In this document: positions 5,582 to 24,396 of the stretch, piece after piece | How positions within the stretch are numbered: the stretch's first letter is position 1 | Layout of the letters: the number at the start of each line of letters is the position of its first letter | Source of the DNA: Capsulimonadaceae bacterium | Lineage (GTDB): Bacteria > Armatimonadota > Armatimonadia > Armatimonadales > Capsulimonadaceae | Reading direction: 5' to 3' | NCBI GenBank assembly: GCA_965215505.1 | Contig: OZ244065.1 | Span: 320,001-384,000, forward strand | Length of the DNA: 64,000 nt | Translations under genes and position numbers: made by a program | The notes under the pieces: model-generated | Told to the model about the DNA's origin: nothing | Database searches by the model: none | The model's input: only the letters and a program-made list of their open reading frames with translations

Positions 5582-8500
5582 TCAGTTGATCGTCACCTGA
5601 TAGCGGACGAACCCGTAGGAGTTGTAAGGGGAGCCTGCCGAAGTGGCGGCGGGCAGGGCGGTGGGGCTGACGACGACGTTCACGACGACCACGCCGCTGA
5701 CGTTCTGGGCCGCCGTGCAGATGCCGGACACGGCGACGCCGGGGACGTAGAACGTCCCCCGGTCGGCGTCGGCGGCGTTGCTGAGGTAGACGGTGGGGGC
5801 GGAGGGGTAGGCGGAGGGACTGGCGGCCAACGCCAGGCCGGAAGGTCCCGTCCCGCCGTCCGTCGGCGTCAGGCCGCTGTAGGAGGTGGGGGCGAAGGTG
5901 ACGTGGGCGGGCAGGACGTTTGAAACCACGACGCTGGTCACGCTCCCGGAGCCTACGGCGAGGAAGTAGATCGTGTACTCTACCGTATCACCGGGTCTGG
6001 CGGTCGTGGCGGTCGCGCCGCGCAGGTAGGCGGCGGACGGCGCGGGCCAGTAGGCGTTGGCATCGTTCCCGGTGCCGTCGGAGACGAACCCGGTGAGGGG
6101 GACGCCGTTGATGGCGGTGATGCGCTTGGTCAGCAGCAGGGCGGGCATGGCGGGCGTGACCGAGGCCTGATTGGAGTTGGCACTCGTCCCGCCGTTGTTG
6201 GTCGCCGTCACGATGTAGTAGTAGACGGTGCCGTTGGAGAGCGCCGCGCCGCCGGTCGGGTCCGTGAAGGAGGTGCCGGAAAGCCCCGTCCCGCCTGTCA
6301 CCGCCGTGTAGCCGCTGCCGCTGGTGGTGGACCGCAGCACCGTGTAGGTGATCGTGCCGCCGCCGGTCGCCGCCGTCCAGGAGAGCGTCGCCCGCGTATT
6401 GCCGGGCACGGCGGCCAGCGCTGTCGGGGCCGCCGGCGGGGCGTTCGGCATGGTGCTTACTTCGTCGGAATGGGCACTCTCGCCGCTCGCGGTGACGGCG
6501 GCGACTTTGTAGTAGTAAGTGGTGCCGTTGGTCAGGCCGGTGTCGGTGTAGCTGGCCGAGGCCAGCCCGGTCTGGTACGGGGTGCCACCCTCCGTCCCCG
6601 GTGTCGTCGCCCGGTACAGGTTGTAGGAGGCGGCGCTGGGGAAGGCCGACCAGGTGACGGTCGCGTTCGCATTGCCGGACGCGGCGGCGGCCCCGGTCGG
6701 GTAGGCGCTGATGGTGGCGATCTCGGCGGCGGTGAGGACGCGGTTATAGACGCGCGCATCGTCAATGCGGCCGTTCACCCAGGCGAACGGGGCGGCGCTA
6801 TACAGCCCGCGCCCGACCAGCGTATGGCCTCCCGCGCTCACGGGGGCTGAAAACGCCTGGGTGGCCTCTAATGTCCCGTTGACATAGAGTTTGAGCTGGC
6901 CGTTCACGGCATCATAGATGCCCAGCAGGTGATACCAGGTCCCGGCGACCGGCGTCGTCGCCGAAGTCGCGGCCCCGCCGACGAGCGCGTTGCTGTCCGC
7001 CGAAGCCAGGGCCAGGGTGAACTTGCCGACCGGCTGGTTGTAGTAGAGCGAGAGGATGCTGACATTGACCCCGCTCTCGCTGATGAATATCTGGTAGTTG
7101 GATGTGCTGTTCATCCTGACCCAGCAGGCGACACTGAAGCTGTTGGCGGTGGCGACGACCCCCTTCCCCATGTCCACCACGCCCGATGTCCCGTTGAAGC
7201 TGCCCGCATACCCGCTGCGGCCCGTCGCCCAGCCCGCGCCCGCGAACGCCCCCGTATTGGCGAAGCCCGACGAGTCGTTGGCCGTCGTGCCGGCGTCCTC
7301 GTCCATCTTCCACCAGCCCAGCAGGCCGCTCGCCCCGCCCGGCGTCGCCGCCACCTCGGCGGAGTTCGCGCTGACGGCGGCCCCGTTGACGGCTTGGACG
7401 ACGTAGAAGTAAGTGTTGTTGGCGGCGGTAGAATCGGTGTAGCTCGTGCCGGTGGGGGTCCCGACCTGGGTGTAGGGGCCGCCGGGCGTCGTCGCGCGGC
7501 TGACGACGTAGCTTGTCGCGCCGGCTGTCGCCGTCCACGCCAGGGCCACCTGGGCGTTCCCCGGCGTCGCCGTCACCCCGGTCGGCGCGGTGGGTATGGT
7601 GAGTGAGGCTTCATTGGAGAGTGCGCTCTCGCCCTGGGCGTTGACGGCGACGACTTTGTAGTAGTAGGCCGTGCCCGCCGTCAGGCCGGTGTCAGTATAG
7701 CTTGCCGAGGCCAAGCCCGTGCGGTACGGGGTGCTGCCTTCGGTGCCGGCGGATGTGCTGCGGTAGAGGTCGTAGGTGGTCGCGCCCGACACGGTCCCCC
7801 AGGTCAGGGACGCGCTGGTGGGCGAGGCTTCCGTGGCCGCCAGGCTCACCGGGGCCGCCGTCACCGACCCGCCCAGCACTTCCAGGCCGTCTATCACAGG
7901 GGCGTTGGGGTTGGTGCTGAAAAGGACCGTGATGTTGCCGCTGCCGTCGGCGGTGGCGTTGAAGTTGCGGACGACGGCCTTGTTGGAACCCCAGGCGGCG
8001 GCATAGATCTCGAAGCCGGTCAGAACCGTAGTCCCATTGATGGAGACGTTGAACAGGCGATGACCAGACGAGCCGTAGTACTTCTCCGCCATGTGCAGGC
8101 GCACGACGTAGGACCCGCCGGCGGTAAGCCCCGGCAGGGTGTAGGTCATCCCGCTGCCGGCCCCGTCCCGGTCAACCTGGTACACGGCCTGCGGCGCGGC
8201 GTTGGCGGCGGTCACGTTGATGGTGTTGCCGGAGGTGCTGACGCTCCCACCTGGGTTCGAGTAATAGGCGTCTGCCGCGAAGGGGGCGATGGCGGCGATG
8301 TAGGTGACCCGGCCCGCGTTGATCTGGTAGTAGGGTGAGGCCGTGTTGACGGGGTCTACGGCGACCTCAGCCGATTGGCTGCTGGTGCCGCCGGCGTTGA
8401 CGGCGGCGACAGTGTAGTAGTACGTCGTGCCGCGCGCCGCCGTGGTGTCGCTGTAGGAGGTGCCCGCGACGCCCGTAGCGAGACTGGTTTCAGCGCCGGA

Positions 8501-9721: not shown

Positions 9722-9735
9722 CGGGGAGCGCTCCG

Positions 9736-10248
9736 TCAGCGGATACGCACCTCACAGCGGGCCGAGACGGACCCCATCGGCGGCAGATCACCCAGGAACG
9801 TCCAGCGGAGCGTCGTGTACCGCGAGGCCGGGGCCGGCTCGTCGTCGGTGCTGCCGTCAGGGTGGGTCACCCGGACCGTCGGCTTCTCGGCGAAGGTCTT
9901 GCCGCCGTCGAGGCTTGCGGTCAGCCGGGCGTCGCCGGAGGCCGACGCCGACGACGCTTGGTATTCCATGCCGCGCGGGACCGGCTGGGTGAGGACGAAG
10001 CCCCTGATGGGCCGTGCGAGGTGGCTGCTCGCGGTCACGGTGTACCGGAGGGCGTCGCCGGGCAGGACGACGGCCTTGCCCGAGCCGAGCGGGAGCCATT
10101 TTGGCTGTCCGTCCTGACCGGGCGGGGCCTTCTTCTCGACGGTCAGCAGCACGGCGACCGGTGCCGGGCCGGCGGGGGCCGCCCAGGCCGCAGGCAGGCA
10201 GAGCGCGGCGGCGAGCAGCATCAGTATGGAGTTGAAGCGGGTTTTCAT
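9736..10248 (-). CDS. Small secreted single-DUF11-domain protein (paralog of 21493-22005)
   Basis: Signal peptide; VLPGDALRYTV...LTQPVPRGMEY...SLDGGKTF...YTTLRW...CEVRIR. Confidence 0.8.
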   Translation of the reverse strand: MKTRFNSILMLLAAALCLPAAWAAPAGPAPVAVLLTVEKKAPPGQDGQPKWLPLGSGKAVVLPGDALRYTVTASSHLARPIRGFVLTQPVPRGMEYQASSASASGDARLTASLDGGKTFAEKPTVRVTHPDGSTDDEPAPASRYTTLRWTFLGDLPPMGSVSARCEVRIR

Positions 10249-10303: not shown

Positions 10304-12697
10304 TCAGTTCAGCTTCCGACGGATCGTAAAGGTGCCGGAAGCGCCCGGCGCGATCGCGCCGGTGATGGTGTCCAGATACTTGGTGACATCCGTCGCCGCC
10401 GTCGTCCCGGTCTGGTCCGAGCAGCTCGTGGTCGCCGGGTTCCCGGAGAAGAACGTGACCACGCCGCCCGAGTCCACCGCCCGGCCCACGACATTGCTAG
10501 TGTCAATGATGCCGTTGCCGTCGTTGTCGAGCGCCCAGTTCGCGCCGCCGCCGATCCCGCTCCGCACCAGGACGACGTTGCTGGCGTTGAGCTGCTTGCA
10601 GTTCGTCCCGCCCGAGGACGAGATGTTCTGGTAGGTCACCTGATATTCCAGGAACCGGCCCGGCAGCAGGTTCGCCGGGGTCAATGTCTGCGTGTAGGCC
10701 TGGATGACGCTCGTGCCGTCGGTGCCCAGGATGCGCCCCAGCACGGCCAGCTTGAGGAAGCCCGTATACACCCGGTCCACGGTGTTCTCCGTGCCCTCGC
10801 CGCTATCATAGGTGCCGCTCCCGTTGCTGTCAATGAAGGCCTGGAGGACGACCGGGTAGCCCTTGCCGGTGTCGGTCGAGAGGGCGGTCGCGTTCGGGAG
10901 CTGCATGGAGGCGGTGATGTTGACCGTGCCGCCGGCGGCGATGTTCGTGGCCGAGATCGCCGTGCCGGACGTCTTGGTCCAGGCGGTGCCGTTGTAGGTG
11001 TAGAGCGGCGCATTGCCGCCGTAGGTCAGCGTGACGGTCGTCCCGCTCGGGAGGTCGGCCGCCTGGCCGCCGGGCAGGACGCTCGGGGGCAGGGGGACGA
11101 CGTAGATGGTGTTCGTGATCGTGGTCGAGCCGGTGTTCTTGATCGTGTTCGTGAAGGACACGGCGGCCGGGTTGATCGCATTCCCCGCCGTCAGCCCGGA
11201 CGGCACCGGGGACGAGAGGTTCGTGTAGTCGTCGTTGGCGTCGGTGGGGCCGACCGCCTGGGGTGAGCCGCTCGGCCCGATCGCGAGCGCGCCCGCCGGC
11301 TGGACCGTGTAGACGTTATCCTGCCCGCCCGCCCCTGAACCGGTGTTGTTGTTTGAAGCGTCCGTCCCGTCGCCTGCGGGGTTGGCGACGCCGCTCCGGG
11401 GCGTGTTGGACCCGTAGGAGCCGTCGTCGTTGAAGTTCGCCGGGTTGGCATCCCCGGACTCGTCGTAGCACAGCGCGCCGGTGACGTCGCCCGCCGAGTT
11501 GCCGAGGAGCTGCGCGAGGGCCGCGACCGTGGTCGGGGCGGTCAGGCTGACGCCGCTCGTGAGTACCGTGAAGGCGAACCCGGTCAGGCTGGTGCCCTTG
11601 GTGATGGGACCGGCGGCGACGAAACCGAGGCGCGTCGTGTTCGACAGCGGTGAGGGCGCTGTGGAAACCCAGGCCGCCGCGCTCGGCAGCGTGGTGGTGG
11701 CGCTGGTGGTATAAATCGCTGTCCAGCCGGAAGGGGCGGCGGGGGTGCCGGTAAGCACGGCCCCGGTGGGCACCGCGACCGAGATCAGGATGCGGCTGAC
11801 GGTGCTGCCGTCGAGGCTGATGCTGGTCGCGGTCAGGTCTGCGGGGACATACTCGGGCAGGGCGTTCGTCCACGCGCTCGAGTTGACGTTCAGGCCGAGG
11901 CTGTAGGCGAGGGTGTCATGCTGAGAGTCCACGCCCTGGGTCAGCGCCCCGTGCGTGAGCAGGACGGCGGCGAAGGCCTGCGGCTGCGAGCCGGCCGTCG
12001 TGGACTCGGTGGCGCTGGCCTCGCGGTTGCCGTTGACCGGCGATCCGGGGTCGGATGTATAGCACTTGCCCGCGCCGCCGGTCGGCGCGGTGGGGTAGGC
12101 CTGGTTCTGCGTTCCGGCGCTGTTGTCGTTCGGGCTGGTGTTACCGAGCAGCACGGCGATGGCGGCACCGGGGGCGGCGCTCGGAGTGACCGTGGCCGAG
12201 ACGCGCACCTGCACCGTGCCGCCCTCGGCGACGGTCGGCGTGGTAGCGCTGGCCCCCGAGACGGTGGTGTAGCTGGTGCCGCCGTTGGTGCTATACTGGA
12301 CGGAGGTCAGCGCGGCCGGGCCGGTGATGGCCACGGTGCCGGGGATGACGAACTGGTCGGTGTCGTTGCCGACGTTCGTGATCACATAGTCGTAGTACAG
12401 GACGTGGCCGGGCAGGATGTTGGCACCGCCCGTGTGGTCGGTGACGGCGGACCCCGTCAGCGTCATGCCCGCCACCTCGGCCACGGTCACGGTGACCGAG
12501 TTGGAAGGCGCGTTGACGGTCTGGCCGCTGTTGTTCGGGTCCACATAGCTCGCCGAAGCCGAGTCGGTGATGGGCGTGCCGGCCGCCGTCTGGGCGCGTG
12601 CGCCAGGCAGGGGCAGCAGCATCGCTGCCAGCAGCAGCGTGGGGAGGAGACCGCACAGCAGCCGTTCAGGGGGCCAAGTTTTTATCTTCGTGACCAC
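10304..12697 (-). CDS. Secreted DUF11-type protein, putative fibre subunit B (paralog of 22015-24396)
   Basis: Signal peptide ...GARA-QTAAGTPITDSASASY; colinear similarity to 22015-24396 over the whole length; start codon uncertain. Confidence 0.8.
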   Translation of the reverse strand: MVTKIKTWPPERLLCGLLPTLLLAAMLLPLPGARAQTAAGTPITDSASASYVDPNNSGQTVNAPSNSVTVTVAEVAGMTLTGSAVTDHTGGANILPGHVLYYDYVITNVGNDTDQFVIPGTVAITGPAALTSVQYSTNGGTSYTTVSGASATTPTVAEGGTVQVRVSATVTPSAAPGAAIAVLLGNTSPNDNSAGTQNQAYPTAPTGGAGKCYTSDPGSPVNGNREASATESTTAGSQPQAFAAVLLTHGALTQGVDSQHDTLAYSLGLNVNSSAWTNALPEYVPADLTATSISLDGSTVSRILISVAVPTGAVLTGTPAAPSGWTAIYTTSATTTLPSAAAWVSTAPSPLSNTTRLGFVAAGPITKGTSLTGFAFTVLTSGVSLTAPTTVAALAQLLGNSAGDVTGALCYDESGDANPANFNDDGSYGSNTPRSGVANPAGDGTDASNNNTGSGAGGQDNVYTVQPAGALAIGPSGSPQAVGPTDANDDYTNLSSPVPSGLTAGNAINPAAVSFTNTIKNTGSTTITNTIYVVPLPPSVLPGGQAADLPSGTTVTLTYGGNAPLYTYNGTAWTKTSGTAISATNIAAGGTVNITASMQLPNATALSTDTGKGYPVVLQAFIDSNGSGTYDSGEGTENTVDRVYTGFLKLAVLGRILGTDGTSVIQAYTQTLTPANLLPGRFLEYQVTYQNISSSGGTNCKQLNASNVVLVRSGIGGGANWALDNDGNGIIDTSNVVGRAVDSGGVVTFFSGNPATTSCSDQTGTTAATDVTKYLDTITGAIAPGASGTFTIRRKLN

Positions 12698-12867: not shown

Positions 12868-14001
12868 ATGACGGAAACACCACTGCGGGTCGCCATCGTC
12901 GGGACCGCAAAACGCTCGGACTACCTCTACGGGCCGCTCTTGAGAGCCATGACCGGCGTCGAGCTGGTCGCCGTCTGGGGCCGGAGTGAGGGTTCTGCCC
13001 AGAAGCTCGGCGCGAGTCTGGGGGTGCCCGCCTACACGGACCTTGCCCGGCTGATTGCCGAGACCGGGGCCGAGATCGGCGTCGTCTCGGTCTCCTATGG
13101 CGCGAACGGGTCGGTCGGGCTGCTGGCCGTCGAACACGGCCTGCACGTTTTATTGGAGACGCCCATCGCCCACGAGCTGGCCGAGGCCGACGCCATCATC
13201 GCCGCCGCCGGTCTGCGCGGCCTGAAGGTGGAGGTGGCCGAGCAGTTCCACCGCCGCCCCCTGGAGGCGATCAAGCTGAAGCTGATCGCGTCGGGCCTGT
13301 TCGGGCGCGTCCACACCTCGTTCAGCGACTTCGCCGGCCACGGCTATCACGGGGTCAGCGTCATGCGCTCCTACCTCGGCTTCGACGCCAAACCGGTGCA
13401 GGTGACGGGGGCGGTCCGCTCCTACCCGCTGGCCTCGCACCGGCCTTACCTGGGCACATCGGACCGGGCGCGGGACGAGACGCAGGAACACGCGACGGTG
13501 GAGTTTGAAGACGGGCGGCTGGGGCTGTTCCACTGGACGAGCGTCGGCTACGACTCGCCGCTGCGCTGGTGGCGCTCCTCGCGGTTCCTGGCGGAGCGCG
13601 GCATGGGGGTGACGACGGGGATGTACCCGGACGTCCAGGAGTATCTGACCCTGCTGACGCCGGACGGGCAGGCCGCCCAGCCGGTCATGCTGGAGCGCCG
13701 CCTGGAGCGGGTGGACGGCGGGGCGCTGACGGCGATGGTGGCGCACACGGGCGACGCCGCCCTGCCCACGGTCATTTGGGAGAACCCGTTCAAGCCTGCC
13801 GTCCAGGGCCACGGCCCGCAGTGGCACGACGACGAGATCGGGGTGGCGGGGTGTCTCCAGAGCCTGATAGACGCCGTGCGGAACGACGCCGCGCCGAGCT
13901 ACGGGCCGCAGCAGGCGCGTCTGGACCAGGAGATCGTGCTGGCCCTGCATCGGTCCTCGAATGAGGGGGGCCGCCCGGTGCGGCTGGCGTCTTCCTTCTG
14001 A
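12868..14001 (+). CDS. Gfo/Idh/MocA-family oxidoreductase
   Basis: LRVAIVG Rossmann start; HVLLETP (EKP variant). Confidence 0.8.
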   Translation: MTETPLRVAIVGTAKRSDYLYGPLLRAMTGVELVAVWGRSEGSAQKLGASLGVPAYTDLARLIAETGAEIGVVSVSYGANGSVGLLAVEHGLHVLLETPIAHELAEADAIIAAAGLRGLKVEVAEQFHRRPLEAIKLKLIASGLFGRVHTSFSDFAGHGYHGVSVMRSYLGFDAKPVQVTGAVRSYPLASHRPYLGTSDRARDETQEHATVEFEDGRLGLFHWTSVGYDSPLRWWRSSRFLAERGMGVTTGMYPDVQEYLTLLTPDGQAAQPVMLERRLERVDGGALTAMVAHTGDAALPTVIWENPFKPAVQGHGPQWHDDEIGVAGCLQSLIDAVRNDAAPSYGPQQARLDQEIVLALHRSSNEGGRPVRLASSF

Positions 14002-14193: not shown

Positions 14194-16437
14194 TCATTTC
14201 ACCCGGACGCGGAACCGGAGGAACCCGTAAGAGCCGGTCGGCGTGCCCGGCCCAGTGGCGCTGGGCAGGGTCGCCGGGGCGGGGGCGAGGGAGACGGCCA
14301 CGACGCCGCTCAGGTTGGGCTGGCCGCCGGGGTTCGCGGCGGCGGGGACCGCCGCGCCCGGCGCGTAGAACTGGCCTCGGTCGGCGTCGGCGACGTCGGA
14401 CAGGTAGTTGGTCGGGGCGGTCGGCAGGCTGGATGCGCTCAGGGCCAGGGCGATGCCCGAGTCCGCGCCGCCCGTGCCCCCGTCGGTCGGCGTCAGCCCG
14501 TCATAGGCCGTCGCTTCAAAGGCGGTGTCGGCGGGCAGGACGTCGGCCAGCAGGATGTTGGTGCCGGGGCCGCTGGTGTCCAGGAAGTAGATGGTGTATT
14601 CCAGCTCATCGCCGGGCTTGATGTTGGCGACGCTGCGGGTCCCGCGCAGGTAGGTGGCGGCCGGGGCGGGCCAGTAGGGGCTGTTGTCGTCGGCCGTGCC
14701 GGGGTCGTCGTCGAACCCGGTCGTGTTCGTCCCGTTGACGGCGGTGATGCGCTTGACCAGCAGGAGGACGGGCGGCCCCTGGACGTTGAGCGTGGACGAG
14801 GCGGCGGGGCTGGGGAAATAGGTCCACAGGTCCAGCCCCTTGGTGTCCCCGAACGAGCCGGTGTTGGGGACATTGGTGTTGCCGTTGTTCCCCGACTGCC
14901 CATAGGCGCGCTGGGCCGAGGAAAGATCGAAGCCGTTTATGGGGTCTGCGGCGATGACAGAGGGCGGGGCGATGCCGCCGAGCGGCTGCCCGACGTCGGC
15001 GGCGCTGCCGGAGCCGCCGACGCTGCTCTTGGTGACGTTGTAGCCGCCCAATGTCCGGTAGCCCCGGTCATCGTAGAATCCGACCGTGTAGGAGTGACCG
15101 CCCGCATTGGCGTGGTTGAGCAAAGAAATGTTCGGCCCGCCGGAGACGTTGTTCTCGGCGTCCAGCAGCGGGAAGTGGTACTCCCCGGCGTGGATCGTGG
15201 CCTGAACGCCGTAGCCGGTGCCGACGGGGAAGTTCGCCCCGCTGTTGTCCTTGCCGTCCCACGTCACGGTGTTCGACCCAGCCGCGCGCACCCCGCGCAG
15301 GCGGCGGTTCGCGGGCAGCGTCGGGTCGAAGTTCACGTTGTCGCGGCTGATCACGATGTCATAGACCGCGCTGAGGTTGCTGGTGAAGCTGAACGTGCCG
15401 CCCGTCCCGAGGCGGCTGTTGTTGCCGCCCGCCGTGCCGGAGAAGCCCAGGCCGCTGATGGTCGGGTCCTGGGGGATGGTCGCGATACCCGCCGCCATCA
15501 GGGTCTCGTTGGCGGCCGGGTGGAAGAAGAGCGGGTAGGTGGGCAGGGCCAGGTGACAGCCGCCCTCGATACTGGAGAGCTGGCCGTCCGCGCCCAGTAC
15601 GTCCTGGTAGAGCGGCGAGACGCCGTCACTGTCGTAGAAGCCGACCTGGTTGCCGTAGATGATGAAGCCGTTCGGGTCCAGCCCGTTCAAAGCCATCTGG
15701 TAGCGGTAGCCGTCGGTCGTCACGGCATAGAGGTCGCTGTAGAGGCAGCGCCCGTTGCCGCCGGTGAACAGGGCGAGGTAGTAGGCAAAAACGCGCCCGG
15801 TGATGTCGGTCGTGGAGGAGGCCGAGGCGCGCACGGCGACGTCCCAGGCGGCCACGCTGCTGCCCTGCGAGCTGTCGAAGTCGTTGGTGGAACCAAGGGT
15901 GATGTCGCCATAGGGGGCACCGGTGCCGGCCGTGTTCCCGCCCGCCGGGCCGTAGAAGACGACCTCGTAGATGCCGTCTTCGGGGGCGACGTAGGAGGCC
16001 GGCGCGTAGCCCGACGTGTTGCCGGTCCCGTCCTGACTCTTCGGCCCGGCAAGCTCCAAAGCGCGGCTGGTGATCTGACCCTTGCCGGCCTGCGAACTCG
16101 CCTGGAAGTCCGGCGATGCGGGCACGTTCTCGCTGCCGACCGCGCCGGTGACGCGGCCCGGCCGGTAGATCAGGATGTCGCCGCTGCCGACCCCGACGGC
16201 CGACGAGGCGACCAGGATGTATTCGCCGGTGTGGGCGTAGACGTGCAGCAGGGTCCGGCGCAGCAGCAGGCTCCCGTAGGTGTCCGTGCGCCATTCCAGG
16301 TTGGCGCGGGCTGCGCCGGGCCGCCCGTCATCGGAGGCGGGGTAGAGGTCGCGGCTGCCCGACGCCCCGGCCCGCAGGGGCAGCATGCAGGCCAGGAGAG
16401 CCAGCGCGAGCGCCCCCAAAGTTCTTCGCTGTGTCAT
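14194..16437 (-). CDS. Secreted protein with unknown N-terminal domains and C-terminal DUF11 domain (putative tip adhesin)
   Basis: Start MTQRRTLGALALALLA signal peptide; FlgD-like TVTWDGKDNSG; C-terminus LLLVKR...KPGDELEYTIYF...DVLP...YGFLRFRVRVK, similar to the end of 5582-9721. Confidence 0.8.
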   Translation of the reverse strand: MTQRRTLGALALALLACMLPLRAGASGSRDLYPASDDGRPGAARANLEWRTDTYGSLLLRRTLLHVYAHTGEYILVASSAVGVGSGDILIYRPGRVTGAVGSENVPASPDFQASSQAGKGQITSRALELAGPKSQDGTGNTSGYAPASYVAPEDGIYEVVFYGPAGGNTAGTGAPYGDITLGSTNDFDSSQGSSVAAWDVAVRASASSTTDITGRVFAYYLALFTGGNGRCLYSDLYAVTTDGYRYQMALNGLDPNGFIIYGNQVGFYDSDGVSPLYQDVLGADGQLSSIEGGCHLALPTYPLFFHPAANETLMAAGIATIPQDPTISGLGFSGTAGGNNSRLGTGGTFSFTSNLSAVYDIVISRDNVNFDPTLPANRRLRGVRAAGSNTVTWDGKDNSGANFPVGTGYGVQATIHAGEYHFPLLDAENNVSGGPNISLLNHANAGGHSYTVGFYDDRGYRTLGGYNVTKSSVGGSGSAADVGQPLGGIAPPSVIAADPINGFDLSSAQRAYGQSGNNGNTNVPNTGSFGDTKGLDLWTYFPSPAASSTLNVQGPPVLLLVKRITAVNGTNTTGFDDDPGTADDNSPYWPAPAATYLRGTRSVANIKPGDELEYTIYFLDTSGPGTNILLADVLPADTAFEATAYDGLTPTDGGTGGADSGIALALSASSLPTAPTNYLSDVADADRGQFYAPGAAVPAAANPGGQPNLSGVVAVSLAPAPATLPSATGPGTPTGSYGFLRFRVRVK

Positions 16438-16466
16438 CGTGTGTCCTCGAAGGGTCCCCGCCGTGG

Positions 16467-19400
16467 CTAATCGCCGGCCCGCCCCGGCGTGCTGGATGTC
16501 GTAACAGCAGACTGCGTCGGCCCGGCGGCGTTCCCCGTCGGGGCGGGGGTGAAGCCGGCCGGGACGGGGCGGCCCTTGTCCGCCAGTGCGCCGCGCTCCA
16601 GCCCGAAGCCGTTGAAGAGCTGGTTCACCTTGGCGGTGAAGCCCAGATAGATGCCGCCCGCCGAGCGCGCCCCGCTGAAGTCGCGGTCGCCGACGCGCCC
16701 GAAGCTGTACCCCAGGCTCAGGCGCAGGTCGGGCGTCGCGAAGTAGCCCGTCTCCACCACCAGGCCCCGGCTGCTGTAGCCCGCCGTCGTCTGGCCGATC
16801 CAGCGCAGGTCGCCCACGAGGTCCATGTCCGACCGGAAGCGGTAGGTCGCCCGCATCTGGGCCAGGTCGATCCGGCTGACGCCCACATAGTCGCCGGCCA
16901 GGAAGGAGACGCTGTCGCGCCGGGCCAGCTTGCCGTAGAACTCCCACTGCCATTCGGGGGCGTAGATGCCCTCGACCGCGAACACTCCGTCGCGCGAGCC
17001 CGCCCCGCTGCCGACCAGGATGGTGTCCGGGATCGTCGCCGGGTTGCGCCGGTAGTCGTAGCGGAGCAGCAGGTTGACGTTGTCGCGGGCTGGGTCGCGG
17101 TAGGCCAGGCCCATCCGCAGCGTCACCGAGCGGCCCAATGACTCCAGCAGCTGGTTCGCGGCGTCCGACTCCTGGTAAGCACCCAGGGCGGTCAGGGCCG
17201 GCCCGATCTTGCCGGCCAGCGCCCCGGTGATGACCGTGTTCTGTCCCCCGGACGAGTCGCGCGTCTCATAGCGCGCGCTGGCTTTGAAGTCGCGCGAGCG
17301 CGTATACTCCAGGCCCGCGCTCAGGCCGCCGCCGCTGCCGACGCCGAGGCCCGAGGCGCTCTGGCCGACGGCGTAGGGCTGCGCGAACCGGTCCCCCGCC
17401 CCGGTGCGCCCGAAGAACGCGCCGGTGACGTGTTCATAGCCCAGGCTGAGGCCCAGACCGGGGACCAGAATCCAGCGCCTGCCCAGGCCGAGCGACTGCT
17501 CCAGGGCGAAGCCGTTTGCGCCCCCGGTGAGCGCGAACCGCTCCGACATCTGCGTCCCGTCCCCGCCCTTGTGTTCGGCGACCGTCTCCAGGCTGGTGAC
17601 GGCGTGGCCTTTGTACTGGCCGCGCCCGTAGACCTGCTCGGTGAGTTTGACGTCCACGCCGGGCTTCGCCTTCCAGTCCGCGCCCACCGAGGTCCGGTCC
17701 GTGTAGACCGGGTCCGTGCCCGCCGACAGCGTGGTGTCGTTCTGGGCCAGCAGGGAGACGTTTTTGGTGACCGGCGCGGTCAGCCGCGTCTCCACCTGGT
17801 CCGAACTGCCCGAAAGGCCCGACCCGGCGATGCGGTCGGTGCGGCTCCGGCTGGTCAGGGCGACGGACACCTCGGCCCGGCGCACCCGCTGCTGCACCCC
17901 GACCGAGTAGGTCTGAAGGCTGTTGTCCACGGGCGTCCCGGCGGCGGGCGTCGTGCCGGGGTCCAGGACGCCGATCAGGGCGGGGTCGGGCTGGGGCGCG
18001 AGGCCCTTGTTGTCCTCGTGGTCGGCCTGCACCCGCAGGCGCGTCGTCGGCGAGAGCGCGGCCGAGACCTCGCCGCCGTACCGGGTCTGGCCCGGCACGA
18101 ACGAGGTGGTGGCGTCATTGGAAAAGCCGGTCCCGGTGGAGTGCAGGTAGGCCGAGACCGAAACGGCCCGCGCCGGGGAGGCCTCGGCGGACAGGCGGTA
18201 GGCGGTCCCGGCGACGTTCCCCAGGCCCGCCGCGCTGTCGCGGCTGTCAGAGCGCGCGATCTCGGCGATCAGCCGGCCACGCCCGCCGAGCAGCGGCAGG
18301 GAGGCGTCCGCCCCGTACAGGTCGAACCCCTGCAAGCCCTGGTTCTGGCGCAGGAAGGTGACGCCGAAGAGGCCGCCCGCCTGACGCCCCGCGCCGCCCG
18401 CCAGTCCGTACTGCATCCGGCCCCCGTAGACATTGGTGCCCGCCCCGCCGGTCTCGTACTGGTAGGTGGTGACGATCCTTCGGACCAGGGCCTGCCCGTC
18501 CGGGCCGACGTCGGTCCGCAGGACGGGCTGGTGGAAGAGCAGTGTCCCCCGGTCGTAGTCGATCTCATAGTCCACGCCGCGCTGGGGGGCGGCGCGCTCC
18601 AGGACGGTTCCGGGCCGGTTGATGTCTTCCAGCTCGAAGAAGACGCTCTCGCTGCCGTAGACCAGGGGCCGGTGGGACAGGAAGTACAGCCCGCTCGTCC
18701 CGTCGGGCGCGACGGTGTCGCGCTGGAAGCCCTGGACGTCGTCGCCGTAGAATCCGGTCGCCTGCAAGCCGCCCGCCTGGTAGTTCGCCTTCAGGGCGTG
18801 GAAGGTGCGCGTGATGGCCGTGAACTCCTGCGACCGGCCCGCGAACTCGGCCGTCCCGTAGTCGCCCCACAGGATGTAGGTCTGGTCGCGTTCCAGCCGC
18901 AGGGCCAAGTTGTCGCGGGACTGGGCCAGGGCGAAGGCGGTGGAGCTGTCGCCGTAGACGGCATAGGGCCGCTCCTGCGCCTGCGTCTGCGTGTCCCGGC
19001 CCAGGCTGCTCGGCCCCGCAGCCGTCTGGTTCAGAGCGTGTTCGCTGTCGTAAGCGCCGAGGAACAGATAGTCGCCAACCTTGCCGGTCGCGAAGACGGA
19101 CGTGCGCCCGTGGAGCTTGGAACCATCGCTGACGTCGGGGCTGATGAAGTCTTGCAGGGGCCGGTCGTAGTCGGAGCGGCGGCTGCCGAGACGGAAATCC
19201 ACCACGCCGGTCGCGAGGGAGGGGCGCAGGTGCGTGGCGAACTCGACGGACGCGAACGCCTCCAGGTCGCCGCTGGCGGCCCGGACGCGGACGGTCTGCG
19301 CCTGCACCCCGGCCCGCAGGGTGGCGCGGAATCGGCCCCCCACGGTCCGGACCTGGAAGCCGGGCTGGTCCGGGTCGGCGTCCTCGCCCACCCACTCGCC

Positions 19401-19910
19401 CGCCCCGGCCGTCAGCGTGACCAGGCCGTCGTGGTGGGAGGGCCGGCCCCGCGCGTCCAGCAAAGCCCCGGTGAAGGCCAGCGTGGAGCGGCCGTCGGCG
19501 GGGAGGCGGCTGCCCAGGGCGCGCAATGTGAGCTGCCGAGGCGCGGACTGCACCTCGACGGTGCGCTCGGCCCGCGCGCCGCCCGGCCCGGTTTCGGCGA
19601 GCAGGGTGTTCGTGCCTTCCTTCAGGACGACGCCGTACCAGGTCTGCGTGACTGTCTTGGCCGCGCCGTCGGTCTCGGTCCGGCCGATGAGGGTGGGGCT
19701 GATCAAGGTCCCGTTGACCCGCAGCGTGACGGCCGCCCCGGCCGGGAAGCGGAGGACGACGGCGACGGCGGGGCTGTCCAGCGCGCCGTCCCCGCCGGGG
19801 GAGAGGATTGCCAGCCCGGATGACTGGGGCACGGTCGTCTGCCCGCAAGCAGGTCGGGGAACTGCGACCACAGCCGCAGATGCCAGCATGAGTGCGATCA
19901 GGTGCTTCAT
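16467..19910 (-). CDS. Large outer-membrane beta-barrel protein with N-terminal Ig-like domains (putative export/assembly channel)
   Basis: Signal peptide; Ig-like LPADGRST segment; long run of alternating amphipathic beta strands ending LRLSLGYSFG...GIYLGFTAKV; ATGA-coupled to the upstream gene. Confidence 0.75.
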   Translation of the reverse strand: MKHLIALMLASAAVVAVPRPACGQTTVPQSSGLAILSPGGDGALDSPAVAVVLRFPAGAAVTLRVNGTLISPTLIGRTETDGAAKTVTQTWYGVVLKEGTNTLLAETGPGGARAERTVEVQSAPRQLTLRALGSRLPADGRSTLAFTGALLDARGRPSHHDGLVTLTAGAGEWVGEDADPDQPGFQVRTVGGRFRATLRAGVQAQTVRVRAASGDLEAFASVEFATHLRPSLATGVVDFRLGSRRSDYDRPLQDFISPDVSDGSKLHGRTSVFATGKVGDYLFLGAYDSEHALNQTAAGPSSLGRDTQTQAQERPYAVYGDSSTAFALAQSRDNLALRLERDQTYILWGDYGTAEFAGRSQEFTAITRTFHALKANYQAGGLQATGFYGDDVQGFQRDTVAPDGTSGLYFLSHRPLVYGSESVFFELEDINRPGTVLERAAPQRGVDYEIDYDRGTLLFHQPVLRTDVGPDGQALVRRIVTTYQYETGGAGTNVYGGRMQYGLAGGAGRQAGGLFGVTFLRQNQGLQGFDLYGADASLPLLGGRGRLIAEIARSDSRDSAAGLGNVAGTAYRLSAEASPARAVSVSAYLHSTGTGFSNDATTSFVPGQTRYGGEVSAALSPTTRLRVQADHEDNKGLAPQPDPALIGVLDPGTTPAAGTPVDNSLQTYSVGVQQRVRRAEVSVALTSRSRTDRIAGSGLSGSSDQVETRLTAPVTKNVSLLAQNDTTLSAGTDPVYTDRTSVGADWKAKPGVDVKLTEQVYGRGQYKGHAVTSLETVAEHKGGDGTQMSERFALTGGANGFALEQSLGLGRRWILVPGLGLSLGYEHVTGAFFGRTGAGDRFAQPYAVGQSASGLGVGSGGGLSAGLEYTRSRDFKASARYETRDSSGGQNTVITGALAGKIGPALTALGAYQESDAANQLLESLGRSVTLRMGLAYRDPARDNVNLLLRYDYRRNPATIPDTILVGSGAGSRDGVFAVEGIYAPEWQWEFYGKLARRDSVSFLAGDYVGVSRIDLAQMRATYRFRSDMDLVGDLRWIGQTTAGYSSRGLVVETGYFATPDLRLSLGYSFGRVGDRDFSGARSAGGIYLGFTAKVNQLFNGFGLERGALADKGRPVPAGFTPAPTGNAAGPTQSAVTTSSTPGRAGD

Positions 19911-21415
19911 CGCGCGCCTTCTTTCGGCATCGGCATGGACATCGGCGCGGGGGCGTCAGCGGGGACGACGCCGAAGTTCAGCCGGACCATGCCGCCCGGC
20001 TGGACGTTGACCAAGCGGGACTGGCTGTTGCGCTCTTTGAAGCGGCGGTTGCGGGCGATGACGTAGCCGGGAACGCTCTGCATGTCCAGGGCGGCGGTGT
20101 GGTAGCCGGCCGTGACCGAGGCCAGCGAGAACAGGCCGTTCGCGTCGGCGACGATGCGCGTCGAGTCGTCCAGGATGACGACGGCATTGGGGACGCCCGG
20201 CTCGCCGGCCTGCTGCTCGCCGTCGCGGCTGCGGTCCACCCAGACGCGCCCCAGGAGGGTGCCGGTGTCGGTCAATAATCCCTGGCGCACTTGCAGGGTG
20301 AAGACGGCGGGGCCGTCGGAGATCGGAGTAGTCATCGTGGTCCCATGGGAGACGGTCAAGACGTCGGCGGTGACGACGGCGGAGTTTTTGCCGTCGCCGC
20401 GCAGGGCGTCCGGCGTGAGCTGGACGGCGTAAGCCAGGGTGAGCGCCTGGCCCGGCGGGAGCAGGAAGCCGCCCGCGTCAAGCACGGTCGTCGGCCCGCT
20501 CCTTGATACTGCGATGGGGACGCTCTTGCCCGACGCCGACGCCCGCACCGAGTCGGGGCGCAGGTCGAAGCCGAGCGGCGGCGTGTCTAATACCTGGATG
20601 TGTTCCAGCGGCAGGGTCGTCGGGTTCTGGACGAGGATGCGGTAGATGACGGTGTCGCCCGGCTCCGCCGTGCTGCGGTCCCCGCTCTTGCTGATCTGAA
20701 GCTCGTGCGCCTGGCAGTCGCTCAGGGTCAGGTTCAGCCCGGCCAGCCCCGGCCCGGTCGGCGCGGCCATCAGCATGGCGTGAGGCCCGGTGAGCGCGCC
20801 GCCCATGCCGTTCACCGGCTCGCCGTCGAGCGAGGCGGCCGTGTAGGCGATGCTCGTGCCGTCCCGCGCCCCCAGGGTGATGCGGATGCGCCGCTGGCGG
20901 TAGGCCGAGCCGGGGGGCGGGGTGAGGACCAGGATGTAGACGCGGCCCGCGTCGAGCTGGCCCCGGCTCGGGTCCAGCATCAGGCTGAAGCGGCCCTTGT
21001 CCGTGTCGGACAGCGCGAACGGGTTGGCGTTAAGGGTGTTAGGCGGGACGCCCGCAGGCACCCCCGCCTCAACGGACAGGGCGGTCGCGGTCAGCGCGAC
21101 GGCCCCCTTGACCTCGGCCCCCGTCGGGTCGGCGGGGTCCGGCTGGTACAGGCCGATGGTGAAGCCCGAGTAGGAGGGCAGGGGGGCACCGTCGCAGCCC
21201 ATCACCGTGCCGCGCGGGTCCACGAGCAGGGAGCGGGTGGTCATCCCGCCCATCGCCATGCCCCCCTTGCCGTCGCTGTAGGAGAAGGAAGTCTGGTTGG
21301 AGATCTGGCCCCGGTCCTGCGCCCGCGCGGCGGGCACAAGGACTGCCGGCAGGAGCGATCCCGCCAGGAGCAGGCCGGCCGCCCGGCGCCCTGATTGTCG
21401 CGCGTAGTTTCGCAT
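19907..21415 (-). CDS. Secreted DUF11 + SdrD-B-like adaptor protein
   Basis: Signal peptide from MRNYARQ; GQISNQTSFSY; complete DUF11 LQISKSGDRSTAEPGDTVIY...DTPPLG...KNSAVV; GRVWVDRSRDGEQQAGEPGVP. Alternative in-frame starts up to 21490 within the tandem repeat. Confidence 0.8.
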   Translation of the reverse strand: MRNYARQSGRRAAGLLLAGSLLPAVLVPAARAQDRGQISNQTSFSYSDGKGGMAMGGMTTRSLLVDPRGTVMGCDGAPLPSYSGFTIGLYQPDPADPTGAEVKGAVALTATALSVEAGVPAGVPPNTLNANPFALSDTDKGRFSLMLDPSRGQLDAGRVYILVLTPPPGSAYRQRRIRITLGARDGTSIAYTAASLDGEPVNGMGGALTGPHAMLMAAPTGPGLAGLNLTLSDCQAHELQISKSGDRSTAEPGDTVIYRILVQNPTTLPLEHIQVLDTPPLGFDLRPDSVRASASGKSVPIAVSRSGPTTVLDAGGFLLPPGQALTLAYAVQLTPDALRGDGKNSAVVTADVLTVSHGTTMTTPISDGPAVFTLQVRQGLLTDTGTLLGRVWVDRSRDGEQQAGEPGVPNAVVILDDSTRIVADANGLFSLASVTAGYHTAALDMQSVPGYVIARNRRFKERNSQSRLVNVQPGGMVRLNFGVVPADAPAPMSMPMPKEGAR

Positions 21416-21497
21416 CGTCAGCCTTCGCATCGTCAGCCTTCGCATCGTCAGCCTTCGCATCGTCAGCCTTCGCATCGTCAGCCTTCGCATCGTCAGC
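21409..21497. repeat. Perfect 15-bp tandem repeat, about 6 copies
   Basis: CGCATCGTCAGCCTT at 21411, 21426, 21441, 21456, 21471, plus a partial copy at 21486. Confidence 0.95.
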
Positions 21498-22005
21498 GGA
21501 CCCGCACCTGGTAGGTCACGGCCAGGGTCGTCTTCGCCGCCAGGGCGGGGAAGCGCCAGCGCAGGGCGGCGTAGGACTCGGGCGGGGCGGGGACAGTCCG
21601 GGCCGCGCCGTCCGCGCCGAGGACGGTCCGGGTGGGCTGTTCGGAGAACCGGTGCCCGTCCAGGCTGTAGGTGACCTGGGCAGGCCCCGCCGCGTCCCCT
21701 TCCGCCGAGCGGGAGACGTAGACGGTGCCGGCCGGGACCGGCTCGGTGACGACCAGGCCGGTGACGGGGGCCGCGCCCGTGTTCTCCGCCTGCATCCGGT
21801 AGCGCAGGAGGTCGCCCGGCTCGACCGGTCCGGTGTTCGCGCCGGCCACCGAGAGGCGCAGCAGGACGGGCGCGCTTTTCGGGGCGGGCGCGGCCCTCGG
21901 GCCGGCCGGCGCGGGGGCGGCGTGGCCGACGGACCAGGCACCCAGGGCGGCCAGTGGGGCGACAAGGACGGCCAGAAGGCCGAGGCGTGTATGCTGCTTT
22001 ATCAT
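21493..22005 (-). CDS. Small secreted single-DUF11-domain protein
   Basis: Signal peptide; VEPGDLLRYRM...N.G...VTEPVPAGTVYV...YSLDG..FS..P...YAALRW...YQVRVR. Confidence 0.8.
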   Translation of the reverse strand: MIKQHTRLGLLAVLVAPLAALGAWSVGHAAPAPAGPRAAPAPKSAPVLLRLSVAGANTGPVEPGDLLRYRMQAENTGAAPVTGLVVTEPVPAGTVYVSRSAEGDAAGPAQVTYSLDGHRFSEQPTRTVLGADGAARTVPAPPESYAALRWRFPALAAKTTLAVTYQVRVR

Positions 22006-22014
22006 GGGAACCTA

Positions 22015-24396
22015 CTAGTTGATCCTGCGCCGGAAGGTGAAGGTGCGGGGCGTGCCTGGGGCGAGGCTGCCCGAGATGGTGTCCACATACTTGGTGACGT
22101 CCGTGGCCGCCGTCGTCCCCGACCGGTCCGTGCCGGGGGCGGGCGGGCCGCCGTTGTAGAAGGTGATGACGCCGCCGCCCGAGTCTACGGCGGAGCCGAG
22201 GACGTTGCTGGTGTCCAGGATGCCGTTGCCGTCCTGGTCCAGTGCCCAGTTGTTGCCGCCCGCCGTGCCGTCCTCGATGATGACGGCGCTGCCGGCGTTC
22301 AGGACCGTACTCCCCGTCCCGGCGGGCGCGGAGGAGACGTTGGTGTAGGTGATCTTGTAGTCAATATAGCGGCCCGGCTGGATGTTGGCCGAGGACGGCC
22401 CGGCGCTGTAGTCCTGGATGACCGTCGTGCCGTCGGCGGCCACGATGCGGGCGCTCTTGGTCACCTGGAGGAAGCCGGTATACAGCCGGTCTATGGTCAT
22501 GTTACTCGGCTCCCCTGGGTCCGGCACGCCGTTGCCGTTGGCGTCCACGTTCGCCAGGATGGGGACCGGGAAGCCTTTGCTGGTGTCCGTCGAGAGCGGC
22601 GTGTTGGCGGGGAGCTGGACCGTCGCCGTGTAGCTGAGGGTCGCACCCGCCGCCATGCTCGGGATAGAGATCGCCGTCCCGCTCGCCAAAGCCCAGTGCG
22701 CGCCGTCATAGCCGTAGACGGCGCTCGCCCCGCCGTAGGCCAGCGTGAGGTGCGTCCCGACGGGCAGGTCGGCGGCGGCCCCGCCGGGGATGGCGGCGGG
22801 CGGCTGCGGCAGGAGGAGCGTGTTGCCGCTGATCGGGGCCGCGCCGGGGTTTTGCAAAGTGTTGGTGAACGTGACGGCGGCGGGCGTGATCAGGGTGCCC
22901 GGCGGGGTTCCGGGGGGGACCGGGGTGGACAGATTCGAGAAGTCGTCGTTGCTGCCGTTCGGCCCGGTCGCGCCGGGCTGGCCGTTCGGCCCGTTCATCA
23001 CGACGCCCGCGGGCGAGACGGTGTAGACGTTGTCCTCGCCGCCCGGCCCGGTCCCGGTGTCGTTGTTGCCCGCGTCCGTCCCGTCCGTGCCGGGGGCGGC
23101 GACGCCGTTCGTCGGCGTGCTTCCGCCCCGGCTGCCGTCGTCGTTGAAGAGGCTCGGCGACTGGTCACCGGACTCGTCATACACAAGCGCGTTCGTGGCG
23201 TCGCCCGAGGTCTGCCCGAAGAGCTGGGCGATGTTGTTCACCGGGGTGGGGGCGGTCGCGCTGGCCCCGGTGGTCGTGACCGTGTAGGCGAAGCCGGTCA
23301 GCGTCGTCCCCCGGGTGACCGGGCCGGGGGCGATGAAGCCGACGCGGGTGACGGTGGTCAGGTCGGTCGGCGCGGCCGTCGTCCAGGCGGCGCTCTCGGC
23401 GACCGTGCTGGTCGGCGTGGTCGTATAAACGACGGTCCAGCCGGAGGGGGCGGTTGGCGTGCCGGTCAGGGTCGTCCCGGCCGGGATGGCGTTCGCGATC
23501 AGGACGCTGGGCGCGGACGCGCCGTTGACGGTCAGGGGGGCGGCGGCGAGGTCGGCGGCGGCCAGGGCGTGGGAGGCACCCGCGCCGGTCGGGACGCTGT
23601 TGTTGACGTTCAGGCCCAGGCCGTAGGTGAGGGTGTCGGCGGCGGGGACCGCGCCCTGGGCGAAGCCGGTCCGGGTCAGCAGCAGGACGGCCAACGCCTG
23701 CGGCTGCGTCCCGACGGTGCCGTTCTGGAAGGCGCTGGCCTCGCGCAGCCCGTTCTGGGCCGTGGTGGAATTCGTGTGGACGTCGGCGGCAGACGGGGTG
23801 GGGTCGGCGATGTTCTGGGTGTCGGTGTTGTTGTCGTTCGCGCCCGTGTCGCCGAGCAGCACCTTGATGACGTCGCCGGTCGCCGCCGAAGCCGCAACGG
23901 TGATGGGGACGCGCACCAGGACGGTTCCGTTCGCCGGGATGGCGGACGTGGCGACCCCGCCCGCCGGGATGTTGGTGAAGTGCGCGCCCCCGTCGGTACT
24001 ATACTGGAGCGCGCCCGCCGTGCCGGGGCCGGTGACGGTCGCCGCGCCGGGCAGGGTGATGGCGTTCGCGCCGTTGCCGATGTTGGTGACGGTGAAGTCG
24101 TAGTTCACCGTGTCGCCGGGCAGAATGTTGTTCGCGTGGCCGGGCGTCGTGTCGGTGACGGCCGCGCCGCCGGCCGAGAGGCCGGCGACCTCGGCGACCG
24201 TCACCGAGACGGTGTTGGAGGTCGCGTTGAGGGCCTGGCCCGCGTTGTTGGGGTCGTTGTAGGTGGCGGACGCGGTGTTGCTGATCGCCGTGCCCGCCGC
24301 CGTGCCCGCCGCCCGCGCCGGGCCGCCGTCCGTCAGGGTGCCTTCAAAGACCCCCCCGAACAGGACCGTCGCGAGGAGCAATCTGCGTGTCTGCAT
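22015..24396 (-). CDS. Secreted DUF11-type protein, putative major fibre subunit A
   Basis: Signal peptide ...PARA; AGTAAGTAISNTASATY; ILPGDTVNYDFTVTNIGN; C-terminal LQVTKS...QPGRYIDYKITYTN...LAPG...TFTFRRRIN; first gene of the operon. Confidence 0.8.
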   Translation of the reverse strand: MQTRRLLLATVLFGGVFEGTLTDGGPARAAGTAAGTAISNTASATYNDPNNAGQALNATSNTVSVTVAEVAGLSAGGAAVTDTTPGHANNILPGDTVNYDFTVTNIGNGANAITLPGAATVTGPGTAGALQYSTDGGAHFTNIPAGGVATSAIPANGTVLVRVPITVAASAATGDVIKVLLGDTGANDNNTDTQNIADPTPSAADVHTNSTTAQNGLREASAFQNGTVGTQPQALAVLLLTRTGFAQGAVPAADTLTYGLGLNVNNSVPTGAGASHALAAADLAAAPLTVNGASAPSVLIANAIPAGTTLTGTPTAPSGWTVVYTTTPTSTVAESAAWTTAAPTDLTTVTRVGFIAPGPVTRGTTLTGFAYTVTTTGASATAPTPVNNIAQLFGQTSGDATNALVYDESGDQSPSLFNDDGSRGGSTPTNGVAAPGTDGTDAGNNDTGTGPGGEDNVYTVSPAGVVMNGPNGQPGATGPNGSNDDFSNLSTPVPPGTPPGTLITPAAVTFTNTLQNPGAAPISGNTLLLPQPPAAIPGGAAADLPVGTHLTLAYGGASAVYGYDGAHWALASGTAISIPSMAAGATLSYTATVQLPANTPLSTDTSKGFPVPILANVDANGNGVPDPGEPSNMTIDRLYTGFLQVTKSARIVAADGTTVIQDYSAGPSSANIQPGRYIDYKITYTNVSSAPAGTGSTVLNAGSAVIIEDGTAGGNNWALDQDGNGILDTSNVLGSAVDSGGGVITFYNGGPPAPGTDRSGTTAATDVTKYVDTISGSLAPGTPRTFTFRRRIN

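Follow-up and report, generated by a model that had tools for sequence, protein, structure and literature searches.

Chaperone-usher pili, as described in a 2026 review (PMC13721041), have a tip adhesin that acts only as an acceptor, a terminator of donor type and an outer-membrane barrel at the base, and their joints are non-covalent; the same review treats covalent pili as a monoderm, Gram-positive and sortase-dependent class. BsaA of Clostridium perfringens (TasA family) is described as assembling by 'donor-strand exchange and lock', in which the donor strand supplies an Asn and the recipient a Lys and a catalytic Glu, and an intermolecular isopeptide bond forms spontaneously after insertion; mutants confirmed that the N-E-K triad is shared between the two partners in this way (bioRxiv 10.1101/2024.11.04.621531). 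The threads of Sulfolobus are reported to combine donor-strand complementation with proposed covalent isopeptide links and no sortase (PMC9715654). In SpyTag/SpyCatcher, an engineered split CnaB2 domain, a peptide with one isopeptide residue covalently completes a truncated domain carrying the other two (PMC6539128). A 2025 survey (PMC12617251) describes DUF11 as CLIPPER, a CnaA-like isopeptide domain in which a first-strand Lys, a catalytic Asp and a late Asn form an intramolecular bond, and predicts DUF7925 to be an isopeptide domain likewise. Here we analyse a locus of a Capsulimonadaceae bacterium (phylum Armatimonadota; contig OZ244065.1, positions 320,001 to 384,000) that encodes secreted DUF11 proteins next to a large outer-membrane barrel, and in which single DUF11 domains appear to be divided between proteins.

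On the evidence described below, we consider it reasonably likely that the locus specifies a surface fibre, or at minimum a chain of tip, shaft and base, made from a split DUF11/CLIPPER domain. For insertion in trans, bond formation, polymer length, assembly order, export and the small proteins, we infer the following scheme. The C-terminal domain of the tip, shaft and small proteins would be an acceptor lacking its last two strands, with the isopeptide Lys and the catalytic acid present in tip and shaft, and the N-terminus of shaft and base, right after the signal peptide, would be a donor, a two-strand hairpin with the isopeptide Asn. Following Sec export, the hairpin would complete the acceptor domain of the subunit ahead, giving a chain with the tip first, then one or more shafts, and the base last, each shaft accepting the hairpin of a further shaft or of the base. 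A Lys-Asn isopeptide bond would form spontaneously and seal each joint, as in 'exchange and lock'. The base would end the chain and anchor it to the barrel, which would probably also release the chain across the outer membrane, and the small proteins would probably serve as a cap or holder, with reversible binding of the donor hairpins (a guess).

The evidence computed here consists of the split itself, the divided triad and its co-loss, a conserved gene set, and gene fusions. Joints in trans are argued for mainly by the co-conservation, over deep divergence, of live acceptors that have no donor and of donors that have no open acceptor. The features are as follows, with coordinates given as positions within the window (the whole stretch of 64,000 nucleotides (nt) that was analysed), lengths in amino acids (aa), and roles that are putative throughout.

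22015-24396, minus strand: shaft 1, 793 aa; signal peptide, donor hairpin, immunoglobulin (Ig)-like domain D1, DUF7925, D3 and C-terminal acceptor domain
24187-24303, minus strand: shaft 1 donor hairpin, residues 32-70; Asn40 codon at 24277-24279; DUF11 repeat nodes 87-120
22018-22506, minus strand: shaft 1 acceptor domain, residues ~631-793; Lys647 codon at 22456-22458, Glu708 codon at 22273-22275; last strand TFTFRRRIN
21493-22005, minus strand: small protein 1, 170 aa; single acceptor-type DUF11 domain with a non-Lys residue at the Lys position
19907-21415, minus strand (open reading frame, ORF, extends to 21490): base, 502 aa from the start at 21415; donor hairpin, middle domain, complete DUF11 and SdrD_B-like domain
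21221-21319, minus strand: base donor hairpin, residues 33-65; Asn40 within ISNQTSFSY
16467-19910, minus strand: outer-membrane barrel protein, 1147 aa; two N-terminal Ig-like domains and ~36-40 predicted beta-strands
14194-16437, minus strand: tip 1, 747 aa; C-terminal acceptor domain at 14197-14772 with Lys and Asp
10304-12697, minus strand: shaft 2, 797 aa, 52% identical to shaft 1; Asn to Asp in the donor, Lys to Val and acid to Arg in the acceptor
9736-10248, minus strand: small protein 2, 170 aa; Gln at the acid position
5582-9721, minus strand: tip 2, 1379 aa; FN3, malectin and LamG-like modules; acceptor domain at 5585-6145 with Lys, and Asn at the acid position

All eight ORFs that the initial annotation had listed as co-oriented genes are present on the minus strand. 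They form module 1 (14194-24396: shaft 1, small 1, base, barrel and tip 1), in which neighbouring gene ends touch or overlap and the barrel start overlaps the base stop by 4 nt, and module 2 (5582-12697: shaft 2, small 2 and tip 2), with a GFO/IDH/MocA oxidoreductase gene on the opposite strand between them. The translated proteins have Sec-type N-termini. The six C-terminal endings noted earlier (TFRRRIN, TYQVRVR, RFRVRVK, TIRRKLN, CEVRIR and RYQVTIN) can all be read in the translations, as can the three segments that follow the signal peptides (GTAISNTASATY, GTPITDSASASY and GQISNQTSFSY). In Pfam/NCBIfam searches, DUF7925 is matched in both shafts (E 4.9e-54 for shaft 1 residues 236-415; E 3.9e-46 for the other), and the small proteins, tips and base give partial matches to DUF11/TIGR01451, which at the C-terminal domains always span the first half of the model only. 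The same searches find an SdrD_B-like domain in the base and the FN3, malectin and LamG-like modules of tip 2, and no known family in the N-terminal ~550 aa of tip 1, for which a protein-atlas search (best score 0.86) also gave no family. Small 1 has no relative among PDB sequences by phmmer. The shafts are the sole DUF7925 genes of the genome, in which the barrel gene is single-copy, and by Foldseek the shaft model resembles generic multi-Ig proteins (PrgB, integrins, antigen I/II).

The two halves of the domain were placed with a DUF11 repeat hidden Markov model (HMM) of 126 nodes, built from 76 tandem repeats of long proteins among the base relatives, and with profile-profile comparison (hhalign) against a 138-column DUF11 repeat profile. 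The triad positions of the HMM are Lys node 7, Asp node 41 and Asn node 96. Residues 56-115 of small 1 match nodes 9-67 (independent E-value, i-E, 5.8e-13) and residues 147-170 match nodes 62-85, with node 85 at the last residue (i-E 0.081); residues 775-792 of shaft 1 match nodes 67-84 (i-E 1.3, weak alone), and its residues 32-70 match nodes 87-120 (i-E 0.002). The internal domain of the base (residues 238-359) covers nodes 2-111 and is a complete DUF11 (2.7e-16). In the profile-profile comparison, the N-termini fall on columns 89-134 (shaft, E 6.5e-5) and 92-134 (base, E 0.013), and the shaft C-domain (columns 6-89, E 5.8e-4) and small proteins (columns 2-89, E 1.8e-13) both end at the C-terminus. 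The C-domains of tip, shaft and small proteins align with one another end to end, with their C-termini in register (E 2.4e-4, 4.3e-6 and 2.5e-3), and the Lys of the tip falls on Lys647 of the shaft in the tip-shaft alignment. Compared by hhalign with the base's own complete DUF11, the shaft C-domain occupies columns 6-94 of 143 (E 6.8e-4), the shaft N-terminus is aligned differently (E 0.082) and the base N-terminus gives a weak match (E 0.36).

Since the N-termini match nodes 87-125 and the C-termini nodes 1-85, the donor is predicted to be a two-strand hairpin and the acceptor its counterpart, the two being, on these alignments, exactly complementary parts of one DUF11 repeat. All 107 shaft homologues carry the donor motif, 95 of them end exactly at the terminal motif, and proteins of a variant locus (below) end at node 84/85 in 15 of 20 cases, so the split pattern is not due to chance. 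A division into a C-terminal acceptor and an N-terminal donor had been proposed in the initial annotation and is supported at the sequence level by both methods, but the single donor strand proposed there gives way to a hairpin, the donor region matching two strands. The pattern of roles also held: the shaft has donor and acceptor, the tip and small proteins only an acceptor and the base only a donor, and these roles are kept together with the barrel from the genus to cyanobacteria and in the divergent variant.

It is unlikely that no complementation takes place, in which case the truncated C-domains would be stable shorter Ig-like folds, the hairpin and C-terminal strand would be signals for export or recognition by the barrel, as in two-partner secretion, and the proteins would be monomeric adhesins released or displayed singly. 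Compact seven-strand DUF11 relatives and DUF11 domains without isopeptide residues are described in the 2025 survey (PMC12617251), and the small proteins and module 2 are conserved although they lack locking residues. However, the N-termini match precisely the part that the C-termini lack and the internal domains of the same proteins are complete, while Lys and acid persist in domains without an Asn strand, and donor Asn and Lys are retained or lost as a pair.

The latter point follows from the distribution of the triad, which the alignments show to be divided in this operon, with Lys and acid in the acceptor domain and Asn in the donor hairpin. In shaft, tip and small proteins the C-terminal domain stops at about node 85 of 126, before Asn node 96 (the tips of the window have an alternative alignment, given below). 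Because the missing strand carries the isopeptide Asn, the joint is probably covalent, a point that the initial annotation had not made. Among the 107 shaft homologues, residue 40 is Asn in 103 and residue 647 is Lys in 103; the four without Asn40 (D, D, D, S) are the same four that lack Lys647 (V, V, N, Q), with zero discordant rows, and three of these four (P0007, which is shaft 2, P0167, P0170 and P0154) also have Arg for Glu708. Tips of the type seen in the window, which have no donor or Asn strand of their own, retain Lys in 7/7 and Asp in 6/7. The donor Asn40 of the base is invariant in 18/18 homologues, and its motif was found by regular expression in 32 of the 46 base homologues inspected, the misses being partly fragments. 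By comparison, the internal DUF11 of the base has the full triad in one domain, with K243, D277 and N344 invariant or nearly so (18 homologues).

Among the small proteins, 16/18 carry Gln in place of the acid, and the Lys position is occupied by another residue in 17/17 aligned sequences; as the acid is absent and the Lys often absent, they are predicted to be acceptors unable to lock. In module 2 of the window, shaft 2 reads D/V/R at the three positions, and the acid position is Asn in tip 2 and Gln in small 2. Module 2 is read as a paralogous set with its locking chemistry lost and without a base or barrel of its own.

Closure in cis would account for the shaft in a different manner: its hairpin would complete its own C-terminal domain, as a circularly permuted CLIPPER with an intramolecular Lys-Asn bond, and the shaft would be a monomeric adhesin, leaving only base-tip (or base-small) joints in trans. 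The co-loss of Asn40, Lys647 and Glu708 does sit within one polypeptide, and in the AlphaFold2 (AF2) monomer model of the shaft (mean predicted local distance difference test, pLDDT, 87.8; predicted template modelling score, pTM, 0.55) the hairpin reaches a pLDDT of 73-84, as if docked, with a low-confidence linker at residues 414-425 that could permit a U-turn. We nevertheless regard closure in cis as improbable. Tips, with Lys and acid but without a donor, and bases, with a donor but without an open acceptor, require a trans partner in any case, and a closed shaft would be unlinked to the conserved set of tip, base and barrel. The linker from hairpin to D1 is only ~6 residues long, like that between consecutive repeats in a rod-like DUF11 array, and the pTM lies below expectation for a confidently closed ring. 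The hairpin is too conserved (effective number of sequences 56) for mutual information to show whether it is coupled to other parts of the shaft.

A fixed 1:1:1 complex, with one tip, one shaft and one base joined covalently per barrel as a long stalked adhesin and no shaft-shaft polymerisation, is quite improbable: the two live donors and two live acceptors of the core module would be satisfied by tip-shaft-base, and a single shaft already forms a multi-domain rod of ~760 residues in its AF2 model, but no sequence feature bars the shaft donor from the shaft acceptor, the co-loss of Asn and Lys within the shaft is most simply explained by shaft-shaft joints, and the shaft gene stands first in the operon, as the genes of major pilus subunits often do.

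Several observations weigh against a split-domain fibre. The tips of the window also fit a complete domain, with an internal LS(N/D)xADAD segment as the Asn strand (profile alignment, E 1.1e-8), and the shaft has an invariant internal Asn731 that is homologous to this segment. Single-sequence HMM matches are weak both for the C-terminal end of shaft 1 (the i-E of 1.3 above) and for the N-terminus of the base (i-E 5.1). The co-loss of Asn40 and Lys647 represents only about two independent events and, lying within one protein, fits closure in cis as well as homopolymerisation. The acid is Glu in 99/107 shafts, whereas CnaA-like domains are described as using Asp (PMC12617251). The AF2 model of the barrel is mediocre (pLDDT 67.9, pTM 0.43), export through the barrel is unsupported, and no periplasmic chaperone was identified for the open acceptor domains.

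The barrel is present in 6/23 other genomes of the genus and in 0/17 searched genomes of other genera in the order. The order shaft-small-base-barrel-tip is found in 3/4 same-genus loci that were fetched, and the fourth begins at the barrel. Named relatives are mostly cyanobacterial, with ~50-55% identity for barrel and shaft alike, and the cyanobacterial barrel homologues are often annotated as 'TonB-dependent receptor' at NCBI. All five genes are encoded in the same order on two cyanobacterial plasmids, Kovacikia minuta pA and Synechococcus sp. NIES-970 plasmid1 (NIES970_28270 to 28230). At E <= 0.001 there are 879 relatives of the shaft, 1302 of the barrel and 3838 of the base, many of them in Nostocales and other cyanobacteria. 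A phylum-wide sample gave a match in 30/301 genomes, full-length in four (G000, G005, G013 and G310), and one of these, G310, another genome of the phylum, has shaft, small, base and barrel, the tip not being found there. The co-occurrence with the barrel that the initial annotation had anticipated thus extends to three of the four same-genus loci and both plasmids for the whole five-gene set, and to G310 for four of the five genes. G+C content is 0.72 across module 1 (window 16001-24000) and 0.65-0.70 in most of the window. This high G+C, the presence in only 6/23 other genomes of the genus, and the location on plasmids in two cyanobacteria and an Acinetobacter suggest horizontal spread of the module.

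A distant variant form was analysed in 20 of the 26 other matching genomes of the sample (G187, G272, G181, G285, G127 and G266, in which the match lies on a short contig, were left out). In 18/20 of these loci base and barrel are a single ORF of 1,626-2,159 aa, which backs the earlier assignment of the base as the barrel-proximal adaptor, as does the same fused variant on plasmid p4 of Acinetobacter haemolyticus (L049, CP085288.1, 5704-19211), with a base-barrel protein of 2,008 aa. The donor motif was found by regular expression in 13/18 fusions; among four of the five misses that were inspected, the Asn lies in a variant motif in three and is replaced by Ala in one, and in the fifth (L062) the motif sits on a split-off upstream ORF. 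A small-protein gene is present in 14/20 loci. An upstream protein of ~880 aa with the donor motif is encoded in 13 loci, in 11 of which a truncated C-terminal DUF11 was also flagged, and Lys is present in 15/15 sequences inspected by eye. Downstream of the barrel, 15/20 loci encode a donor-less protein with a canonical DUF11 that breaks off at node 84/85, where the chain ends (i-E 1e-10 to 1e-18); 13 of these 15 tips have Lys and Asp, one has lost both (Gln and Asn) and one was not aligned at the Lys node. The DUF11 domains inside these proteins extend to nodes 114-123 and serve as an internal control. The Acinetobacter locus also encodes a small protein, an OmpA-family protein and a 978-aa tip-like protein, and its expected shaft stretch consists of several short ORFs annotated as DUF11/NEW3, which may be a broken gene.

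The barrel protein gave only a weak Ig-like match in Pfam/NCBIfam and otherwise no family, and a profile search of PDB sequences matched only the Ig-like part, to a beta-galactosidase, with no relative for the barrel part. Its AF2 model, from a 61-row alignment, places two Ig-like domains at the N-terminus and ~36-40 strands within residues 232-1094, and its Foldseek matches are exclusively large outer-membrane barrels at a TM-score of ~0.2 (SlpA, MtrB, TonB-dependent transporters, SprA, FimD and LptD). Conservation within the barrel family peaks in an insert of ~75 residues with many invariant positions (residues ~395-470, window ~18500-18730; FQRD..PDGTSG.YFLS...RPG...DY.IDYDRGT..F), which is modelled with short strands rather than long barrel strands and could be a plug or docking module. 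An identity as a TonB-dependent receptor was rejected, neither the plug nor the receptor-barrel family being matched in Pfam and the Foldseek likeness being generic (TM-score 0.13-0.16). A type V (autotransporter) assignment was likewise rejected, with no Pfam family match and ~36-40 strands compared with 12-16 for an autotransporter or intimin-type barrel; the base-barrel fusions merely resemble the passenger-then-barrel order of autotransporters.

Known export and assembly machineries were looked for in the genome and at the locus. The usher family (PF00577) has 0 matches genome-wide, with a positive E. coli control, and none in the barrel protein (Pfam), by which a chaperone-usher system was rejected. 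A sortase-dependent pilus was rejected as sortase has 0 matches in the genome and LPXTG is absent from the C-termini of the locus, which read ...RRRIN, ...RVRVK and similar. No PapD-like chaperone family was found by Pfam in the eight locus proteins and 10 flanking ORFs (PF00345 was not searched genome-wide). The absence of PapC, PapD and sortase genes reported earlier was therefore borne out, for PapD-like chaperones within the locus and its flanks. The FimA/Mfa-type lipoprotein pilin families of type V (Bacteroidota) pili are absent from the locus proteins (Pfam), and an Omp85/BamA gene is present in the genome.

Compared with chaperone-usher pili, the proposed chain would have the same polarity, tip first and terminator last, and the proposed completion of a subunit by the N-terminus of its neighbour is analogous in sequence logic, though in a different domain family and with two strands missing. 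The donor here would be a two-strand hairpin and the joint probably covalent, the subunits are multi-domain proteins of 750-1400 aa, and the barrel has ~36-40 predicted strands, versus 24 in the usher. Sortase-assembled Gram-positive pili, as the 2026 review describes them, are likewise covalent tip-shaft-base fibres of Cna-type isopeptide domains (PMC13721041); in contrast, the bond here would be autocatalytic and the anchor would be an outer-membrane barrel rather than peptidoglycan. The likeness to BsaA, which lies at the sequence level only, is that Asn40 and Lys647 plus Glu708 are kept or lost as a set. BsaA belongs to an unrelated fold family, however, the locus proteins matching DUF11/DUF7925 and no TasA-related Pfam family, and Pfam scans of these proteins and their neighbours found no SipW-type signal peptidase or TasA-related family. 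BsaA also comes from a Gram-positive host without outer membrane or barrel, and has single-domain subunits with no division into tip, shaft and base.

CLIPPER adhesins, in the account of the 2025 survey, share with the locus the domain family and the Lys/acid/Asn triad, and the DUF7925 of the shafts is another of its predicted isopeptide domains (PMC12617251). Their triad lies in one domain of one chain, whereas here the terminal domain is split between chains and the bond would be intermolecular; we found no description of split domains in that survey. The Sulfolobus threads differ in being archaeal, in the reported bond, which links the N-terminal amine with an Asn of the next subunit but one, in their fold and in having no outer-membrane component (PMC9715654). 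SpyTag/SpyCatcher is man-made, CnaB-type and Lys-Asp, while the pair proposed here would be natural, CnaA-type and Lys-Asn, and would serve assembly. Litorilinea GhlA (49 DUF11 domains in a single chain of 6,596 aa) was set aside as unrelated to the split domain, as was work on the Synechococcus PCC 11901 signal peptide and on Anabaena TrcR.

A number of further features were observed in the window. Residues ~236-246 of shaft 1, within DUF7925, read LLLTRT in shaft 1 and its close relatives, versus ILKTRT in the cyanobacterial homologues (Leu for Lys); if the replaced Lys is the isopeptide Lys predicted in PMC12617251, the DUF7925 bond would be lost in this genus. The longest ORF of tip 1 (14194-16953) starts 516 nt further upstream, inside the barrel gene, and the start was placed at 16437 because the signal peptide and all orthologues fit that position. 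The junction of small 1 and base (window 21409-21497) contains a perfect 15-nt tandem repeat (5.9 copies, 100% matches), which encodes MRRLT five times on the coding strand with an in-frame ATG in every copy; translation of the base could therefore begin at any of several sites, and slippage in copy number would preserve the frame. Tip 2 (5582-9721) contains direct repeats ~1 kb apart, with copies of 250-300 nt and 76-91% identity, which duplicate an FN3 plus malectin unit and give near-identical peptide stretches in translation. Carbohydrate-related genes lie nearby (1-5141, 12868-14001 and 29018-31017), encoding a glucuronyl-esterase-like protein, an AraC regulator and several GFO/IDH/MocA oxidoreductases, and fit the malectin and LamG modules of tip 2.

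In the literature on DUF11, DUF7925, isopeptide pili and cyanobacterial surface filaments we found no published split DUF11 domain and no covalent donor-strand fibre in diderm bacteria, and an assembly route with two borrowed strands and a self-made covalent seal appears to be undescribed for outer-membrane bacteria. The wider proposal, for and against which we find the balance about even, is that the split-domain fibre represents a new class of diderm pilus, a natural counterpart of SpyTag/SpyCatcher, with hairpin donation between split CLIPPER domains, autocatalytic Lys-Asn locking, export and anchoring by a ~40-strand barrel, no chaperone, usher, sortase or ATPase, and dead small acceptors that regulate assembly; it would be widespread in cyanobacteria and at least two other phyla, and sometimes plasmid-borne. 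Such domains could yield natural orthogonal peptide-domain ligation pairs, together with non-locking variants. If true, the scheme would unite the covalent and donor-strand principles in diderm bacteria without the known machineries, and would account for conserved 'hypothetical' surface proteins in a large family. It also offers a testable model of adhesion, in which the malectin, FN3 and LamG-like modules of tip 2 adjoin carbohydrate-active genes.

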